Source of the DNA: Candidatus Liptonbacteria bacterium
GTDB taxonomy: Bacteria; Patescibacteriota; Minisyncoccia; UBA6257; Colwellbacteraceae
Assembly (NCBI GenBank): GCA_019923695.1
Contig: JAHXGO010000002.1
Coordinates: 1-37,741, forward strand
Length of the DNA: 37,741 nucleotides
Reading direction: 5' to 3'
Shown in pieces: positions 41 to 32,574 of the stretch. The notes beneath the pieces are model-generated. The model ran no database searches and was not told the DNA's origin. It saw nothing but the letters and a program-made list of their open reading frames with translations. A program made the position numbers and the translations under genes. Every line of letters begins with the position of its first letter. Positions within the stretch are counted from its first letter, which is position 1.

Positions 41-2620
41 ATGGTTTCGCTTCAAAATTCTTTATCCGAAGTAAAAGGCATTGGCCCGAAGTTTATCGCA
101 AAACTCAAACGGCTTAAAATAGAAACCGTAAAAGATATTTTATGGCACTTTCCCGTTTATTATCAGGATTGGAATAAAATCACTTTAATAAAAAACTTAA
201 AAGCCGGTGAAAGAGCGGTAATTAAAGCAAAAATTTTAAATATTAAATATCGAAGAACCTGGAGAAAGAAAATGGCTGTCATTGAAGCTCTGATTAATGA
301 CGGTTCTGGGACAATTAGGGTTATTTGGTTTAATCAATATTACATAAAAAATATTTTAACTAAAGGAAAAGCCGCTTTTTTTGCCGGAAAAGTTATGGCT
401 AGCCCGGACGATATTTATCTTTCCAACCCTCATTATGAAATAATCAACGAACAAAACGAAAAACCTTTTTTAACCGGTCTTTTGCCAATATACCCTGAAG
501 TTAAAGGTCTTACCTCAAAAGGTATCAGATTTGTCATAAAAAAAATTATTCCTTCACTTGAAATAATTCAAGAATTTGTCCCAAAAAAAATTTTAACTGA
601 TTACGGTTTACCAGAAATAAATAAGGCAATCTTTCAAATCCATAACCCTGGAACAGAAAAAGAAGCGCAATTAGCAAGAAAAAGATTTGAATTTGAGGAG
701 TTGTTTCTTCTTCAGTTAAACAACCTTACCCAAAAAAGAAAATTAAGAAATGAAAAAGCCATTCAAATCCAAACTGACATTGAGTTTATAAAAAAAATAA
801 TAGAGAGTCTTCCGTTTAAACTTACTTTCCCTCAAAAGAGAAGCTTATGGGAAATTCTGCAGAATCTAAATCGTCAATTTCCGATGAACAGGCTTCTTCA
901 AGGAGATGTGGGTTCAGGTAAAACCGTAGTCGCGGCCATAGCGTCGGTTCTAACCGCAAAAAACGGCTTTCAGGCCTGTTTTATGGCGCCAACCGAAATT
1001 CTGGCTAATCAGCATTATCAAACTTTCAAAAAATTATTCGGTCAATTTAACTACCCTATTGCTCTGCTAACATCAAAATCCGCCATTATCTTTTACGCTG
1101 AAGGATTGGAAACCGAAATTAAAAAACAAAAAATCATTGAAGACATAAAAAACGGAAAAATAAAAATAATAATTGGAACACATGCTTTGATCCAAAAAAA
1201 CATAATTTTCAACAACCTGGCTTTTGTGGTGATTGATGAACAGCATAGGTTCGGCGTTCGTCAACGAGCCTTACTGACACAATCTCAAGTCGTCAATACA
1301 TCCGAGTTTATAAACAATGATAAAATTGCAGAAAAAAAATTATTCTCTAAGTTAAAAAATATTTTTTTAAAAATTCAAGAAGAAATAGGAAGTTTTTGTC
1401 AGGAGGAACAATATGCTGATGTATTAGAAAAAAAATTGAAAGAAGAAAAAATAAATTTTAAAAGAGAGCTCCCAACTGAAGTTGAAGATAAAAAACCCAA
1501 TTTTATTAATTTTATCATTGAAAACAGAATTTTAATTAATCTTAAATCAAAGCCGCTTATAGAAAAAAGTGATTACTATCAAATGAAGTATTGTTTAGAA
1601 ATTACTAATTTGGAATTGGGTTTAATAATAAATTTTCAAGATAAATATCTAAAGTTAAAAAGAATTTTAGGAGATAAAAAAATTGTAAACTCGAATAACT
1701 TAATGGTTTCAAATCAGTTTTTACCGCATTTTCTTTCTATGTCAGCCACTCCGATTCCACGCACATTGGCAATCACGATTTTTGGAGATCTTGACCTTTC
1801 AATTATTGACGAACTTCCTTTGGGAAGAAAACCAATTATCACAAAAATAGTGGCTCCAATAAACAGAAATAAAGCTTATGATTTCATTCACGATCAAGTT
1901 AAAAAAGGAAAACAAGTTTTTGTTATCTGCCCCAGGATAGACAATGCGCGGACCGAAACAGATTATGAACAAACTAACCCAGATAATCAGTATGAGTCCG
2001 TGTCAAATAAACATAGGCCTACTTTATTATGGGAAGTCAAAGCAGTCAAAGAAGAATACAAAAAACTATCAGAAGAAATATTCCCCGACCTTAAAGTAGC
2101 GATGGTTCACGGCAAAATAAAAGCAAAAGAAAAAAACCAGATTATTTCCGACTTCAAAGACAAAAAATATGATATTCTTGTTTCTACTTCTGTTGTTGAG
2201 GTTGGGGTGGATATCCCCAACGCTACAATTATGATGATTGAAGGAGCGGAAAAATTCGGTTTAGCTCAACTTTACCAATTCAGAGGCCGAGTCGGAAGAA
2301 ATATTTACCAGTCTTTTTGTTTTCTTTTTACCGACTCATTTTCAAAAGCAACCCATTACAGATTAAGAGCTTTAATTGAAGCAAAAAACGGCTTTGAGCT
2401 TGCCGAAAAAGATTTACGGATTAGAGGTCCGGGAGAATTTTTAGGGACAGAACAAACCGGATTGCCGGATACGGCAATGAGGGCCCTAAAAAATCCAAAA
2501 TTAATTAAAGAAAGTCGCGAAGCCAGCCAAAAAATTCTAAACAAAGACCCATATTTAGACACTTATCCTTTGTTAAAAAATAAACTTTCGACTTTTCAAA
2601 AAGCAATCCACTTGGAATGA
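41..2620 (+). CDS. recG: ATP-dependent DNA helicase RecG with an inserted GxxExxY (PD-(D/E)xK-fold) domain
   Basis: Motifs QGDVGSGKT, MAPTEILA, DEQHRFG, SATPIPRT, QFRGRVGR and DLRIRGPGE. 859 aa, longer than typical RecG because of an insert of about 145 aa and one of about 28 aa. Confidence 0.97.
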   Translation: MVSLQNSLSEVKGIGPKFIAKLKRLKIETVKDILWHFPVYYQDWNKITLIKNLKAGERAVIKAKILNIKYRRTWRKKMAVIEALINDGSGTIRVIWFNQYYIKNILTKGKAAFFAGKVMASPDDIYLSNPHYEIINEQNEKPFLTGLLPIYPEVKGLTSKGIRFVIKKIIPSLEIIQEFVPKKILTDYGLPEINKAIFQIHNPGTEKEAQLARKRFEFEELFLLQLNNLTQKRKLRNEKAIQIQTDIEFIKKIIESLPFKLTFPQKRSLWEILQNLNRQFPMNRLLQGDVGSGKTVVAAIASVLTAKNGFQACFMAPTEILANQHYQTFKKLFGQFNYPIALLTSKSAIIFYAEGLETEIKKQKIIEDIKNGKIKIIIGTHALIQKNIIFNNLAFVVIDEQHRFGVRQRALLTQSQVVNTSEFINNDKIAEKKLFSKLKNIFLKIQEEIGSFCQEEQYADVLEKKLKEEKINFKRELPTEVEDKKPNFINFIIENRILINLKSKPLIEKSDYYQMKYCLEITNLELGLIINFQDKYLKLKRILGDKKIVNSNNLMVSNQFLPHFLSMSATPIPRTLAITIFGDLDLSIIDELPLGRKPIITKIVAPINRNKAYDFIHDQVKKGKQVFVICPRIDNARTETDYEQTNPDNQYESVSNKHRPTLLWEVKAVKEEYKKLSEEIFPDLKVAMVHGKIKAKEKNQIISDFKDKKYDILVSTSVVEVGVDIPNATIMMIEGAEKFGLAQLYQFRGRVGRNIYQSFCFLFTDSFSKATHYRLRALIEAKNGFELAEKDLRIRGPGEFLGTEQTGLPDTAMRALKNPKLIKESREASQKILNKDPYLDTYPLLKNKLSTFQKAIHLE

Positions 2621-2839
2621 TAGTTTCGTCTACAATCTGCATAAATTCAGATATATAAATTTTTTTTAGATGGCAAAAATATCTTAACGAAGGAGGCGAA
2701 AAACTAAACACTGTTCTGACAACAAAACGAATTTGTATTATTCTGAAAGCCACAAAAAATTTCATCACTAAAAATCTTCTTATGAAAAGATAGATAAAAA
2801 AGTTATTTGTCTCATTTAAATTAAAATATATTTCGACAA

Positions 2840-3109
2840 AAAAATATCATTTATTTTTATAACTTTCTTAAATACCCAAGAATGAACGCTGTTGCAGAGA
2901 GACCTAACCGAACCTTACGAGAGGAATTCATTGATTGGGATAAAGAGACTTTGGCTTGCGATTTAGAGAGATTCAACAAAAAGTTCATTAACTGGCTTGT
3001 GTGATATAATACCCAAAAGTCTCATTACATTTCCCAAAACAAGCTGTCTCCTGTACAATTTATGATATCAATACGATATTCCATTATCCAAAGAGGTTGA
3101 TTGGATACA
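2840..3109 (+). pseudogene. Decayed IS481-family (rve/integrase-core) transposase, C-terminal remnant
   Basis: Frame from 2840 reads KNIIYFYNFLKYPRMNAVAERPNRTLREEFIDW...FINWLV*YNTQKSH...SPVQF...G*LDT. This matches the integrase-core pattern PxxNxxxERxNRTLxEEF...YNxxRPH...SP. In-frame TGA at 3002 and 3098; ends in ACA at 3107-3109, like IS481 termini. More degraded sequence probably extends upstream to about 2650. Confidence 0.8.
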
Positions 3110-3218
3110 TGGTTTTTTATTTCAAAATAAATGGGGTTGGGATAAATATATAATTAAAAAACACCCGGGAATTAAAAAGATTTTTTCTTTCAAGAGAGAA
3201 GCTGAGCAGATAAAATTT

Positions 3219-3809
3219 TTGAAAAAATATATTATTGAATTTAGAAAAGAAAATAAAAAACTAATAGAAGAAAATAAAACAAGATACCAAAAAGAATGGC
3301 AAAAAATTGAAAAAGATTTTTTCATTGTACTTCCAAAAATTTTGCAAATTGATTGGCCTCAAGATAAAACAATTAGGGCTATGATTTCTATCAACCCAAT
3401 TTGCCCTCGTTTCTTAAATGATTGGAGTTTCTCTATTTTTTATAACTACAAAAAATCATCTCATGCGATGGAAGTTATTATGCACGAGTGTTGCCATTTT
3501 TTGTATTTTGAAAAATGGAAACTATTATATCCAAAAGTAAATAATAAAAAATTTGAATCGCCTTATTTAGAGTGGCATTTGAGCGAAATTTTAGCGCCAA
3601 TCATCTTAGGTGACATACGAATTCAAAAAATGTTAAAACGTAAGGCAGATTTTTATACCGAACATAAAAGAATAAAAATAGGTGATAAAACTGCTCCTAA
3701 ATATTTTAATGATTTATATAATAAAACCGCCAAAAGTAAAAATTTTGATGAATTTTTAAAAGAATCTTATCAGAGAATTAAAAAGAATAATGAATTATTT
3801 AAAATATAA
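3219..3809 (+). CDS. HExxH zinc-metallopeptidase-like protein, probably 5'-truncated
   Basis: MEVIMHECCHFLYF motif plus a downstream Glu in WHLSEILA. The frame stays open upstream of the TTG, through the IS end at about 3110, with no ATG. Confidence 0.7.
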   Translation: MKKYIIEFRKENKKLIEENKTRYQKEWQKIEKDFFIVLPKILQIDWPQDKTIRAMISINPICPRFLNDWSFSIFYNYKKSSHAMEVIMHECCHFLYFEKWKLLYPKVNNKKFESPYLEWHLSEILAPIILGDIRIQKMLKRKADFYTEHKRIKIGDKTAPKYFNDLYNKTAKSKNFDEFLKESYQRIKKNNELFKI

Positions 3810-3847
3810 AGTCCAATCGGCGTTTTAATTTTTGATGATTTTCGGCG

Positions 3848-3935
3848 AGCGGGCAAAAAATTTCCTCCCCCCTCAAATTTACCCTCGTAGGGAAACTTTG
3901 TTTCTCCTTCGGGGTTCCCCAAATTCTTGCCCGCT
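3848..3935 (+). other. GC-rich multi-branched stem-loop element
   Basis: Outer stem agcgggcaa (3848-3856)/ttgcccgct (3927-3935) encloses hairpins ccct-cgt-aggg, gaaac-ttt-gtttc and tcc-TTCG-ggg. Confidence 0.55.
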
Positions 3936-3975
3936 ACCTGCATAAATCAATAGATTATGCTATTTTCATACTAGA

Positions 3976-3996
3976 AAAAACTCACTGTGAGTTTTT
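3976..3996. promoter_or_regulatory. Perfect inverted repeat (terminator or operator) upstream of the Cys-rich peptide
   Basis: aaaaactca-ctg-tgagttttt. Confidence 0.4.
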
Positions 3997-4036
3997 CAAA
4001 ATCAAGCACTTTTACAACCGAAAGGAGATGAGAAGA

Positions 4037-4180
4037 ATGAATGAGTCGGAAATTCTCGTCGTCCCCGATACCGAGACGCGCGTGCGAGTCGCCGAAAAAA
4101 TCGACCTCAAAGATGCGGTCGATGTGCGACCCTGCGACTGCACATCCTGCAGTTCCTGTAGATGCACTCCGTGCAAGTAG
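4037..4180 (+). CDS. 47-aa Cys-rich small peptide, RiPP-precursor-like (not in ORF track)
   Basis: AAAGGAG SD at 4021-4027, 9 nt before the ATG. MNESEILVVPDTETRVRVAEKIDLKDAVDVRPCDCTSCSSCRCTPCK*. 80/144 nt G+C by hand count. Alternative ATG at 4028. Confidence 0.8.
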   Translation: MNESEILVVPDTETRVRVAEKIDLKDAVDVRPCDCTSCSSCRCTPCK

Positions 4181-4380
4181 TACGGCATCACTAAAGACCC
4201 GAACATGTCTATAAACTGCTCTTTTTCTTTGTAAAATAAATTATTAATTATATATTGCATCGGGGATATTTATTTTAATGTCCAATGTGATCTTTCTGTA
4301 TTATACCACGCAAATCAATCAATAAATTTTCTGTTGAATCTCTCTAAATCATAAACTAAGGTCTCTCTTTTAAGACATCG

Positions 4381-4564
4381 TTATATGTAAAAATCTCGAG
4401 TATTATTTACACTTTTAATTTTATATTCAAGGACAGGTTGTCTTGAAGAACATCTTACAGATGCGCTGGGCTTGGTGTCGCCGCTGGAGCAAAAATATTC
4501 TGGTTCTGAAAGACAATCTGTCCGAAAATGTAAACAACGCTATGAAATTTTACACGTTATATAA
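4381..4564. repeat. Hairpin-forming dispersed element, copy 1 (MITE-like or structured ncRNA)
   Basis: Near-identical to 32359-32533; nested inverted repeats with TGTAA...TTACA ends. Confidence 0.85.
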
Positions 4565-4705
4565 ACAAGCAAAACCTTTAATACCATAACTAATGCTTAT
4601 TATTTTCATACATATTTAAACTCCTACAGAGTCCAATATGTATCTGAACTTATGCGCCCCTTATATCAAACGGCGCGCTACTCACTATAGCGAACCGTAA
4701 ATTCG

Positions 4706-5014
4706 CTATTCAGTTTTAATAATCTTAACTTCAGTAAAAAGTTGACGGTGTCCTTTCTTTTTTCTATAACGAGTTTTTGATTGATAGCGAAAAACTATTT
4801 TTTTATCTCCTTTGCCTTGGCATAAAACTTCCGCTTCCACTTTTCCGTTTTTAAGATACGGCTCGCCTATTTCAACATTTGCGTTATTGGCCTTAAGTAA
4901 AACTTTCTCAAAAAAAACGCTGGCGCCTTTTTCGCCTTTAATTTTTTCTATTTTTATTATATCGCCGGCTGAAACCAAATATTGTTTTCCGCCACTTTCA
5001 ATAACTACTAACAT
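4706..5014 (-). CDS. rplU: 50S ribosomal protein bL21
   Basis: VIESGGKQYLV...KKKGHRQLFT. Confidence 0.97.
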   Translation of the reverse strand: MLVVIESGGKQYLVSAGDIIKIEKIKGEKGASVFFEKVLLKANNANVEIGEPYLKNGKVEAEVLCQGKGDKKIVFRYQSKTRYRKKKGHRQLFTEVKIIKTE

Positions 5015-5023
5015 TAAAATATC

Positions 5024-5326
5024 TTACCAAAAAAAAATCCGAGATGCAACTGAAACGAAAATTATAGCGCTTACAAATAAACTTACCGCGCCAAAAATAT
5101 AAGAAACAACCCTTTCTCTTTTAAAAACAAATTCAGCCAAAACAAAATTCATTACCACAATAAAAAAATTAATGCCGACTATTTTTAAGATAGAAATTTG
5201 GTCACCGATAAAACCGGTTATTATAATAAAATTCCCCTCTATTTCAAAAACAGCGATTAAAAACGAAGACAAAACAAAAAATAAAGCTAATAAATATATC
5301 CCAAAATAATAAAATCTTTTTTTCAT
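5024..5326 (-). CDS. Hypothetical membrane protein
   Basis: Three hydrophobic segments; tightly packed between tRNA-Glu and rplU. Confidence 0.75.
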   Translation of the reverse strand: MKKRFYYFGIYLLALFFVLSSFLIAVFEIEGNFIIITGFIGDQISILKIVGINFFIVVMNFVLAEFVFKRERVVSYIFGAVSLFVSAIIFVSVASRIFFW

Positions 5327-5514: not shown

Positions 5515-6852
5515 TTACTTCAGCCATTTCCCATATTGACGAGGCAATAATTGCCCTGCCTTTGCCGGTTCTGCCATTATTTTAAAACTGATTTTCTCCA
5601 TTCTGACGCCTTGAGAGCCTTTAACAAGAATCAAATCATTCGGTTTGATTATTTTTTCAATATTTATTTTTGCTTCATCAGAGTTTGCAAAACTTATGAC
5701 CAAGGGGCAATCTATGACCAAGGGGCAATCTATGACCAAGGGGCAATCTGAAATATTTTTTTTTATAAATTTTGTTTTTCTCGCGCCTTCAGCTATAAAT
5801 TTTGCTTTTGTCCCAACCGTAATCAAAACATCAACAAAACCAGCAGCTAATTTTCCAATATTTTTATGAGCTTCAACAGAATACTCCCCCAATTCTAACA
5901 TATCTCCTAAAATCGCCACCTTTCTTTTTGCTTTCAAATCTTTCAAAACATCAAGCGCTTCTTTTGCTGAAGATGGCGAAGTATTATAAGAATCATCAAT
6001 AAGATAACAAGATTTAATTCCTTTAATAAGTTTTAATCTCCCGGGCAAAGATTGATAAAAAGGAAAAATATCAGCCATTTCCTTAAGAGTAAAACCTAAA
6101 ATTAACCCCACGGCCGCGCTAACTGCTGTCGCGTAAGCCTGGCCCTTGCCAAAAACTCCGTCAATTTTAACTGTTACGCTTTGTTTTTGATATTGTAATT
6201 TAAAAATAATACCTAAAGGATTATACCCCTGACAACAATTTTTAAAACCGGTAATTCTGACATCAGCGCCTTTATTAAATCCGTAAGTTAAAACTTTTGC
6301 TTTTGTTAAATTTTTTGAGGAAAGAACCGTTTTGTCGTCAAAATTTAATATCGCGAAACCTTTTTCCGATAAACTTGAAATTATTTTTGCATCCTCTTCA
6401 GCCACTTCTTTTGGACAACTATAAAATTCAACATGAACCGGCACATCCGAAGAAGAAACAAAAACACCAATCAAAGGACTAGTAACTTGCAGTAAATAAT
6501 CAATGTCTTTTGGCTTATCGGCGCCATACTCTAAAATAAGAAATTTAGGGTAATCGCTTTTAAAAATAATTTTAAAAAAAGCCAAAAAAAACACTTTTAA
6601 CCAAAATAAAAACCCGCCGGTTTGATAATACTCGCCTAAAATAGTTAGAGGTAAGCCGATTTCATTGTTAAAACTTCCGCGACTTGCCCGAACTTTGTTC
6701 TTAGCTTTCAAAACATTGTATATCGCCTCTTTGGTTGAACTTTTGCCAACCGTGCCTGACACCCCTATAATTATCGGTTTATATTTTAAAATAATTAATC
6801 GGCTAAAGTGTTTTAAAAGAAAAATTAGAATTTTTAATAAAATTTTTCGCAT
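5515..6852 (-). CDS. murF: UDP-N-acetylmuramoyl-tripeptide--D-Ala-D-Ala ligase (MurF-type Mur ligase)
   Basis: GTVGKSSTKE, NNEIGLPLT, IDDSYN, LGDMLELG, LVKGSQ; dcw context. Confidence 0.92.
   Translation of the reverse strand: MRKILLKILIFLLKHFSRLIILKYKPIIIGVSGTVGKSSTKEAIYNVLKAKNKVRASRGSFNNEIGLPLTILGEYYQTGGFLFWLKVFFLAFFKIIFKSDYPKFLILEYGADKPKDIDYLLQVTSPLIGVFVSSSDVPVHVEFYSCPKEVAEEDAKIISSLSEKGFAILNFDDKTVLSSKNLTKAKVLTYGFNKGADVRITGFKNCCQGYNPLGIIFKLQYQKQSVTVKIDGVFGKGQAYATAVSAAVGLILGFTLKEMADIFPFYQSLPGRLKLIKGIKSCYLIDDSYNTSPSSAKEALDVLKDLKAKRKVAILGDMLELGEYSVEAHKNIGKLAAGFVDVLITVGTKAKFIAEGARKTKFIKKNISDCPLVIDCPLVIDCPLVISFANSDEAKINIEKIIKPNDLILVKGSQGVRMEKISFKIMAEPAKAGQLLPRQYGKWLK
5695..5748. repeat. Perfect 3 x 18-bp tandem repeat inside murF
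   Basis: (tatgaccaaggggcaatc)x3, encoding (DCPLVI)x3. Confidence 0.98.
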
Positions 6853-32358: not shown

Positions 32359-32533
32359 TTATCTGTAAGAATCTCGAGTGTTATTTACACTTTTAATTTT
32401 ATATTCAAGGACAGGTTGTCTTGAAGAACATCTTACAGATGCGTTTTTGCCGCTGGAGCAAAAATATTCTGGTTCTGAAAGACAATCTGTCCGAAAATGT
32501 AAACAACATTATGAAATTTTACAGATTATGTAA
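32359..32533. repeat. Hairpin-forming dispersed element, copy 2
   Basis: Near-identical to 4381-4564 except a 9-nt shorter central segment and a few substitutions. Confidence 0.85.
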
Positions 32534-32538
32534 TCAAT

Positions 32539-32574
32539 AAAAAATCCCTCCTTTTTTAATACGGGAGGGATTTT
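32539..32574 (-). terminator. Intrinsic terminator
   Basis: aaaatccctcc...ggagggatttt stem with U-tract on the minus strand. Confidence 0.7.

Follow-up and report, generated by a model that had tools for sequence, protein, structure and literature searches.

The open reading frame (ORF) at 4037-4180 of the stretch analysed here, positions 1 to 37,741 of contig JAHXGO010000002.1 from a Candidatus Liptonbacteria bacterium (assembly GCA_019923695.1; this whole stretch of 37,741 nt is called the window), is an intact and genuine gene of a small Cys-rich peptide. We consider it probable that the gene encodes the precursor of a peptide that is ribosomally synthesized and then modified post-translationally (RiPP), of the radical SAM type, in a branch of the FibroRumin family whose cassette is mobile, and that the copy in the window is a recently stranded relic without its maturase. 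What is left here is a 1.2-kb fragment between decayed ends of insertion sequence (IS) transposases; it comprises the precursor gene, the shared regulatory region 5' of it and a HExxH paralogue truncated at its 5' end. The assembly as a whole yielded no radical SAM gene, and the peptide could therefore not be matured here. The relevant features of the window are as follows.

2882-3065, plus strand: degraded C-terminal remnant of an rve-type (IS) transposase, 3' end toward the fragment
3066-3809, plus strand: HExxH (HECCH) paralogue of the zincin-fold protein of the cassette; ORF from TTG 3219, 196 aa
3916-4036, plus strand: conserved 5' region of the cassette, from the alignment of loci
3938-3966, plus strand: putative promoter-like element, CTGCAT, 17 nt including TG, TATTTT, as read from the alignment
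3976-3996, plus strand: palindromic or hairpin sequence AAAAACTCAC-T-GTGAGTTTTT, within what is presumably the 5' untranslated region
4021-4027, plus strand: Shine-Dalgarno (SD) sequence AAAGGAG, 9 nt before ATG 4037; family consensus AAAGGAGGTG
4037-4180, plus strand: precursor peptide gene, 47 aa, TAG stop at 4178-4180, from its ORF, homologues and coding signature
4181-4249, plus strand: conserved 3' intergenic stretch; homology ends at 4236-4251 in every comparison
4250-4368, minus strand: second degraded remnant of the same transposase C-terminus, abutting the end of the cassette homology
4012-4260, minus strand: antisense ORF of 82 aa, a non-gene that originates in the transposase remnant's tail and crosses the peptide gene in antisense

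The peptide gene and its family

The translation of 4037-4180 consists of a Cys-free leader of 32 aa, MNESEILVVPDTETRVRVAEKIDLKDAVDVRP, with eight acidic and five basic residues, and a core of 15 aa, CDCTSCSSCRCTPCK, with six Cys in the pattern CxCxxCxxCxCxxC and five Ser/Thr. This leader and core layout had been described in the initial annotation, made from the letters alone, together with the SD sequence 9 nt before the ATG, a G+C content of 56% far above the surroundings and an antisense ORF, and all of these were recovered: the SD sequence at 4021-4027 precedes the start at 4037, the G+C content of 4037-4180 is 0.556 against 0.316-0.329 in the flanks and 0.323 in the whole window, and the 82-aa frame is present on the minus strand.

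The word-indexed protein search returned seven proteins of 47-90% identity, whose C-terminal RPC.C..C.SCRCTPCK is the same throughout. Scanning for the pattern, with tblastn as confirmation, turned up 10 loci among species-representative genomes and 62 among metagenomes, and all 72 fetched loci carry the CxCxxCxxCxCxxC motif in an open frame; homologues that keep both the Cys pattern and the frame, for which a search had been proposed, therefore exist. The non-redundant set used below comprises 53 loci, the window included. The invariant C-terminal core of the family reads C-x-C-T-x-C-x-S-C-R-C-T-P-C-K. Among 401 genomes sampled from the phylum, the peptide turned up in three, this one included, and a DNA search of the 40 nearest relatives gave only four short matches (34-45 nt), none of which lies in the ORF. 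Viral contigs showed no relative of the peptide, and the window peptide has no match in Pfam or NCBIfam (E up to 1). A spread to archaea (DPANN) was rejected, its sole basis being one 2.8-kb contig binned as Nanoarchaeota (L015); since the genes next to a similar variant (L076) are bacterial DnaB and L21, we do not claim spread across domains.

In a comparison of 50 distinct DNA versions of the gene, all of them taken from other contigs and open in this frame, the column entropy summed over the 15 core codons was 4.05 at the first codon position, 1.54 at the second and 17.63 at the third. The ratio of nonsynonymous to synonymous change (pN/pS) was 0.079 in the core, where pS is saturated at 0.83, and 0.53 in the leader. 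The core of the window is identical to that of its closest relatives, and the differences are confined to the leader; the comparison with the peptide gene of locus L018 gives three nonsynonymous changes and one synonymous change (pN/pS about 0.95, on tiny counts). In the SD region of the window, a G-to-A change relative to the family consensus also makes an in-frame ATG at 4028, because GGAGATG stands there where relatives have GGAGGTG, and this alternative start would give 50 aa. The start was placed at 4037 because the SD-to-ATG spacing is conserved among relatives; in 40 of 49 loci, an SD-like motif is found no more than 20 nt from the start so assigned.

A G+C-rich island in an AT-rich genome often turns out to be an RNA gene, and a minus-strand hairpin with a T-run at 4095-4125, inside the ORF, weakly resembles Hrs13 (20.6 bits against a gathering threshold of 52, E 0.044). 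It is nevertheless hardly credible that the segment is a structured RNA, or that the real gene is the 82-aa minus-strand ORF. The substitution pattern matches the plus-strand frame only, so the conservation on the minus strand that had been named as a refutation of the peptide gene is not seen, and the SD-ATG geometry is conserved. The minus-strand ORF has no Pfam or NCBIfam match and begins inside the transposase remnant. A scan of 3000-5200 against Rfam (E up to 1) gave no family at threshold; the Hrs13 match and a weak IMES-1 match were dismissed as chance, and a tRNA scan found none near the peptide gene.

The cassette in other loci

The conserved neighbours of the peptide were found by clustering all ORFs within 6 kb of it in the 53 loci. 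The usual cassette consists of the precursor, a HExxH zincin-fold protein of about 235 aa and a radical SAM/SPASM enzyme of about 460 aa. Inspection of the neighbourhoods for radical SAM-SPASM genes had been suggested as a check on the proposed RiPP precursor, and since the homologues do adjoin such an enzyme, both the proposal and its leader and core layout gain support. The 235-aa HExxH gene stands beside the peptide, full length or nearly so, in 43 of the 53 loci, and the radical SAM gene of the cassette type, wherever seen, lies within about 2.3 kb of the peptide. Three gene orders occur, namely peptide > HExxH > < radical SAM, peptide > radical SAM > < HExxH, and all on the same strand. 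No transporter or other additional gene is conserved across the cassette loci. What flanks them varies, from housekeeping genes (IF-2, CTP synthase, DnaB, FtsEX) at one extreme to other genes of RiPP type. A lanthipeptide-type system was looked for as well: no LanB/LanC/LanM/LanKC-type enzyme was found among 100 Pfam-scanned neighbour proteins from 15 long loci, nor any lanthipeptide-type enzyme among the conserved neighbour clusters of the 53 loci.

The radical SAM enzyme of the cassette (about 455-494 aa) carries the motifs CNIRCRYC and SPASM CKNCIALGNCGGGC and matches PF04055 with E 1.6e-19. Its best NCBIfam model is TIGR04136, the FibroRumin-type maturase, at 278-286 bits where the cut-off is 400, and the alignment runs end to end (residues 7-449 on model positions 3-454, E 5e-85); PapB (143 bits) ranks second, ahead of the SCIFF maturase (142 bits) and of CefB and QhpD-type models. 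Thus, the relatives adjoin an enzyme that stays below the TIGR04136 cut-off, and no radical SAM gene stands at the window's own locus. The same division is seen for the motif pair CxxxCxxC and SPASM Cx2Cx5Cx3C, which is found beside the peptide in the family and not in the window. The nearest solved sequence is 5wgg (E 4e-25), which we take to be CteB, and the structure model (predicted local distance difference test, pLDDT, 83.9) gives a Foldseek alignment to it that spans 479 columns (E 1.5e-17) and takes in the N-terminal strand/helix domain. Residues 1-85 of the model form these strand/helix elements with pLDDT 92-97, and no Pfam match to a RiPP recognition element (RRE) or PqqD is listed for them.

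In the HExxH protein, H144, E145 and H148 are invariant in 28 sequences and a SEIFN-type Glu is present in most. The best folds matching its AlphaFold model (pLDDT 95.5) are catalytic domains of M1-type aminopeptidases and other zincins, with Z 7.0-7.6, a range that is common for the method, and Foldseek gave no match at E 0.001 or better (best E 4.6e-3). Its best Pfam match is DUF3267, "putative zincin peptidase", at E 0.009, which is below the cut-off, and no NCBIfam match was found with E up to 0.1. A complex prediction with the precursor scored 0.01 against a mark of 0.32 and is evidence for neither side. The protein would most simply be a leader peptidase.

Further RiPP-type genes were observed beside several cassettes: a second type of radical SAM/SPASM enzyme with a nucleotidyltransferase after it, and MvdD-like ATP-grasp ligases (L010:12745-15026, L013:4738-7076, L013:11156-12136 and L046:12475-13488), while locus L009 has three radical SAM paralogues. 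These neighbours suggest small RiPP islands in CPR (candidate phyla radiation) genomes.

The broken cassette in the window

By sequence comparison, the cassette is truncated in the window. DNA homology to intact cassettes spans 3916-4249, starting at 3849 in the case of L007, and stops about 50 nt short of where the HExxH gene starts elsewhere. At this end, and again upstream of the HExxH paralogue, lie the two remnants of the transposase C-terminus. The first (2882-3065) translates as ...ERPNRTLREEF...WLV*YNTQKSH...SPVQF and matches Pfam rve_3 at E 0.012, its paralogue in the same genome (C19:26497-26913) doing so at E 2.1e-6; the second (4250-4368) reads ...DLERFNRKFID*FAWYNTERSH...SPMQYI. 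The two form an inverted repeat with 77% identity (2944-3031 against 4366-4277), both face inward, and they bracket 3066-4249. The HExxH paralogue between them (ORF 3219-3809) is 30% identical to the 235-aa type, lacks the N-terminal portion of about 85 aligned residues and has no match in Pfam or NCBIfam. It is regarded as 5'-truncated because its frame is open back to 3066 without an ATG, GTG or TTG.

A sister contig from an independent assembly (L017) is 98.9% identical over 53-4437, the junction included, and has no difference in 4037-4180. In this contig the HExxH paralogue is a pseudogene: two stops interrupt its frame, HExxH carries a His-to-Tyr change, and indels are present. As a separate observation, 29 of the 49 differences between the window and L017 fall within the 460-nt stretch 3161-3624, where dS is about 0.11 compared with 0.011 in recG, and the alternative allele is also present in sequencing runs X1, X5 and X6. 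This looks like an imported divergent (pseudogene) allele, and not like mutation in place. Contigs assembled from metagenomes have loose ends at 3075 and 4236, and in runs X1 and X6 the continuation past 4236 is an intact cassette of the L007 type, which means that intact cassettes co-occur in the community.

Loss of the maturase

That no maturase is present in the window, as the initial annotation had stated, is also true of the whole assembled genome (422 kb, 22 contigs, 95.9% complete), in which the suggested search was carried out. The query with a single radical SAM protein gave no match, and the best score against PF04055 in the whole genome was 12.6 bits, although all 14 control genomes gave a match. 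In a tblastn search of the genome with 73 radical SAM and HExxH queries, the best radical SAM hit had E 0.032, and only ORF 3219-3809 was matched. Radical SAM enzymes may be lacking from this organism altogether.

It could be argued that the cassette is split and the peptide matured normally, with its cognate radical SAM/SPASM enzyme lying in the unassembled 4% or so of the genome, on an extrachromosomal element, or in a host or partner cell. The completeness and the 22 contigs leave room for this, repeats such as the shared leader break assemblies, and the L007-type continuation shows intact cassettes in the same samples. However, those contigs may come from another organism, the contig of the window runs 33 kb past the gene, and its junction is confirmed by L017. 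The tight spacing of peptide and enzyme elsewhere, the lack of any PF04055 match above 12.6 bits and the lack of a viral contig with the peptide point the same way, and we consider a split cassette very unlikely.

Maturase loss is seen in other loci too. The radical SAM gene is full length in 25 of the 53 loci (24 by script and L035, which was flagged for an extra fragment only) and full length in two pieces in four (L016, L018, L055, L056). At contig ends its status was not judged (16 loci); these are L017, L021, L022, L025, L037, L051, L059, L060, L062, L065, L067, L075 and L077, together with L023, L029 and L061, where about 1.1-1.2 kb downstream shows no radical SAM gene. Inside long contigs it is truncated or absent in the remaining eight: truncated in L019 (32 aa left), L026 (84 aa) and L042 (126 aa), absent in L009, L024, L036, L063 and the window. 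All eight retain an intact peptide core and seven of them keep the 235-aa HExxH gene, so that the window is the only long locus without both partners. In L009 and L026 other radical SAM/SPASM paralogues lie nearby.

Interrupted radical SAM genes were also noticed. In L075 (764-3287) about 1.7 kb separates residue 111 from a part covering residues 110-250, and in L018 and L055, and in L056, the gene lies in two frames. These are signs of frequent maturase decay, or assembly errors.

Upstream region and regulation

About 105-125 nt upstream of the peptide gene are repeated, inverted, before the convergent radical SAM gene in other loci. The inverted copy is 99% identical in L007, 100% in L020, 99% in L027 and 100% in L032, and it reaches at least 50 nt in seven loci; the copy on the radical SAM side of L007 is 93.8% identical to the window over 128 nt. 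Because the upstream region recurs in this manner, a natural inference is that the peptide and radical SAM transcription units would be co-regulated. In the putative promoter-like element the first hexamer is TTGCAT in the family consensus and CTGCAT in the window; a generic promoter and terminator scan did not pick out the element. In the hairpin at 3976-3996, 80.9% of cells are paired, against 25-61% when the partners are slid, and six of the nine pairs are changed on both sides, with G-U pairs present. We do not claim a riboswitch because folding of 3840-4040 gives only z = -2.5.

Just upstream of the regulatory region, at 3848-3948, there is a long G+C-rich hairpin (GAGCGGGCAAAAAATT ... 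AAATTCTTGCCCGCTAC). A simpler version of it follows tRNA-Pro at C18:33020-33075 in the same genome and also stands beside cassettes (L007, L018 and L020). The hairpin may act as terminator or insulator, or be the end of a repeat element.

Horizontal movement

The cassette DNA is 73-95% identical to the window in loci whose flanks share nothing else with this genome; the 15 kb of L019, for example, share only 314 nt (91%) with it. Between the housekeeping proteins encoded at these loci and those of this genome, identity is only 37-57%. The flanking genes also differ between cassette loci. Since the identity of the cassette exceeds that of housekeeping proteins, the contexts vary and transposase remnants flank the fragment in the window, movement of the cassette between genomes is supported by these comparisons. 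The horizontal acquisition put forward in the initial annotation thus holds on other grounds than its own, for its argument from G+C richness had to be rejected: high G+C is a property of the peptide gene in most loci (0.39-0.58, above both flanks and the rest of the cassette in 17 of 19 long loci).

A stranded relic or a peptide kept without its enzyme

In the scheme that we favour, the leader would dock on the N-terminal RRE-like domain of the adjacent radical SAM/SPASM enzyme, which would cross-link the invariant core (thioether bonds, known from the closest relatives that have been characterised, being most likely), and the HExxH zincin-fold protein would then remove the leader. With no such enzyme in the assembly, the orphan peptide of the window is most likely a recently stranded relic that has lost its function.

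Several points weigh against this interpretation. The cross-link chemistry is extrapolated, because no FibroRumin or family member was characterised in the papers searched. By analogy, the HExxH protein might instead be an alpha-ketoglutarate-dependent hydroxylase. CPR bacteria are generally anaerobic, which would make an O2-dependent hydroxylase less likely if it is true of these hosts. The precedent lies in HEXXH proteins paired or fused with radical SAM enzymes that proved to be hydroxylases of this kind, of a beta-hydroxylase family named there as IPR026337 (excerpt of PMC12636437). A maturase might lie on an unassembled piece, given an assembly of 22 contigs. In one study, two RNA libraries gave contigs that span 3944-4233, and the orphan gene may be transcribed, or DNA may have been carried over; we do not claim transcription because the depth in these libraries is flat relative to DNA runs. 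Finally, the peptide ORF, SD sequence, core and 5' region are undamaged and identical in the sister L017, and the seven other loci with a truncated or absent radical SAM gene keep an intact core, which could mean that the peptide is used without that enzyme.

The last points, together with the RNA-library contigs, are those on which a functional orphan would rest: an unmodified Cys-rich binder of metal, Fe-S or redox type, or a peptide processed otherwise, kept by selection. The core being much more conserved than the leader agrees with it, as does the cassette without a conserved exporter, which is compatible with an intracellular role. On the other hand, no match to a metallothionein or other metal-binding family was found in Pfam or NCBIfam, and the metallothionein-like alternative of the initial annotation found no positive support. 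The retention of the HExxH partner in seven of the eight deficient loci, some with other radical SAM/SPASM paralogues, also speaks against independence from maturation. In the window itself the HExxH paralogue next to the gene has lost its 5' part, and its sister-strain counterpart is a pseudogene; the -35-like hexamer and the SD sequence each deviate from the family consensus, and the ratio against L018 (about 0.95, tiny counts) does not indicate constraint. We therefore regard a functional orphan as unlikely and the stranded relic as the better account.

For the family, it is a quite doubtful but consequential proposition that the peptide has a role independent of the maturase, such as binding metal or Fe-S or acting with the HExxH protein. 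If true, it would explain the intact core in at least eight lineages without a complete radical SAM gene, this genome included, and such "RiPP precursors" would be bifunctional small proteins, not mere substrates.

Other features of the window

A MITE-like repeat (miniature inverted-repeat transposable element) of about 190-230 nt with TGTAA...TTTACA ends lies at 4381-4574; its full copies have an internal G+C-rich hairpin. It recurs at 32359-32543, C12:41701-41926, C2:7633-7922 and C17:19121-19205, on C5 and several times on C1, that is, in many copies in a 422-kb genome, has no Rfam match, and its summed contig depth is about 15-140 times that of neighbouring bins in four groundwater runs. 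A RecG-like helicase ORF of 859 aa occupies 41-2620 on the plus strand and, judged by the usual RecG motif spacing, presumably has about 170 extra residues between the DEQH box and MSATPIPRTL. A MurF-like ligase ORF at 5515-6852 on the minus strand has a perfect threefold repeat, DCPLVI-DCPLVI-DCPLVI, near its C-terminus.

Implications

Sub-megabase CPR genomes are usually held to lack secondary-metabolite genes. In keeping with this, the excerpt of one survey gives no gene clusters in its Patescibacteria metagenome-assembled genomes (PMC11613949). The loci described here indicate that a compact three-gene radical SAM RiPP cassette circulates among such genomes. Its near-invariant 15-residue core would be atypical for antimicrobial RiPPs and closer to SCIFF-type signals or cofactors. 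The window appears to illustrate cassette decay, in which IS elements remove the enzymes and an intact orphan precursor stays behind, and genome mining by isolated leader and core peptides should expect orphan relics of this type.

Comparison with known systems

The fusion proteins of the ChlB type resemble the cassette in that a radical SAM peptide maturase is combined with a zincin-fold HExxH protein on the same precursor, and both the radical SAM domain (9gm3) and the HExxH domain (8s5f) of ChlB are among the structural or sequence matches. The difference is that the two are separate genes in the family cassette, and the match of the HExxH protein to 8s5f is weak (Z 4.7, rank 40) compared with M1 domains (Z 7.0-7.6).

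The SCIFF ranthipeptides (six Cys in forty-five residues; CteA/CteB, Tte1186a) and freyrasin/PapB share several features with the family. The family precursor also has about 45 aa and six Cys, conservation is likewise higher in its core than in its leader, the maturase is a SPASM radical SAM enzyme whose nearest structure is 5wgg, and there is no dedicated exporter. SCIFF maturases have an N-terminal RRE, and the N-terminal domain of the cassette enzyme is predicted to be RRE-like. In SCIFF and ranthipeptide maturases this RRE binds the leader and the SPASM clusters hold the donor Cys; SCIFFs reportedly carry beta/gamma thioethers from Cys to Thr/Asp and are too widespread to be antibiotics (excerpt of PMC8326336). 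The family differs by its Cys spacing CxCxxCxxCxCxxC, a divergence from SCIFF that the initial annotation had rightly noted, by peptides without a match to SCIFF precursor models, by a radical SAM enzyme far below the cut-offs (142 bits against 425 for TIGR03974, 143 against 340 for PapB) and by the extra HExxH gene.

The nearest named system is FibroRumin. With TIGR04135, four of eight family peptides score 16-20 bits where the cut-off is 45, and the window peptide stays without a match when E is allowed to reach 10. When 30 family peptides were made into a profile and run against 1.84 billion representatives, 23 proteins were retrieved; three of these (P0020, P0027 and P0028; E 2.8e-8 to 2.9e-4), with the core ...RCNCT.CNSCRCDCSC..., pass TIGR04135 at 55.0, 47.3 and 60.7 bits, and a further 13 reach 15-33 bits, below the cut-off. 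Look-alikes in a protein atlas belong to clusters named FibroRumin RiPP (PF27848, score 0.75-0.76), which we treat as a lead only. No paper naming FibroRumin was found in the literature searched, and none describing a radical SAM RiPP cassette in CPR; the excerpt of PMC8597712 touches CPR as general background. FibroRumin is thus known as database models only, for which the CPR branch would offer a defined substrate and enzyme pair.

Both systems have a short precursor with an N-terminal leader and a Cys-rich C-terminal core of the ...RCNCTxCxSCRC... kind, and an adjacent radical SAM/SPASM enzyme that aligns with TIGR04136 over its whole length. They differ in that the family scores lie under the curated cut-offs (radical SAM 278-286 of 400, peptides 15-33 of 45), that the family core ends with ...SCRCTPCK at the C-terminus where FibroRumin has ...CRCDCSC... 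with a tail, and that the hosts are CPR-type genomes. The family cassette also includes the 235-aa HExxH protein. The initial annotation had thought of a possibly undescribed family, a view that gives way to these links of the enzyme to TIGR04136 and of the peptides, by profile, to TIGR04135 and PF27848. Because the radical SAM enzyme is nearest to TIGR04136 and the peptide profile retrieves TIGR04135 members, the peptide family appears, from these profile relationships, to be a divergent, sub-threshold CPR branch of the catalogued FibroRumin RiPP family.

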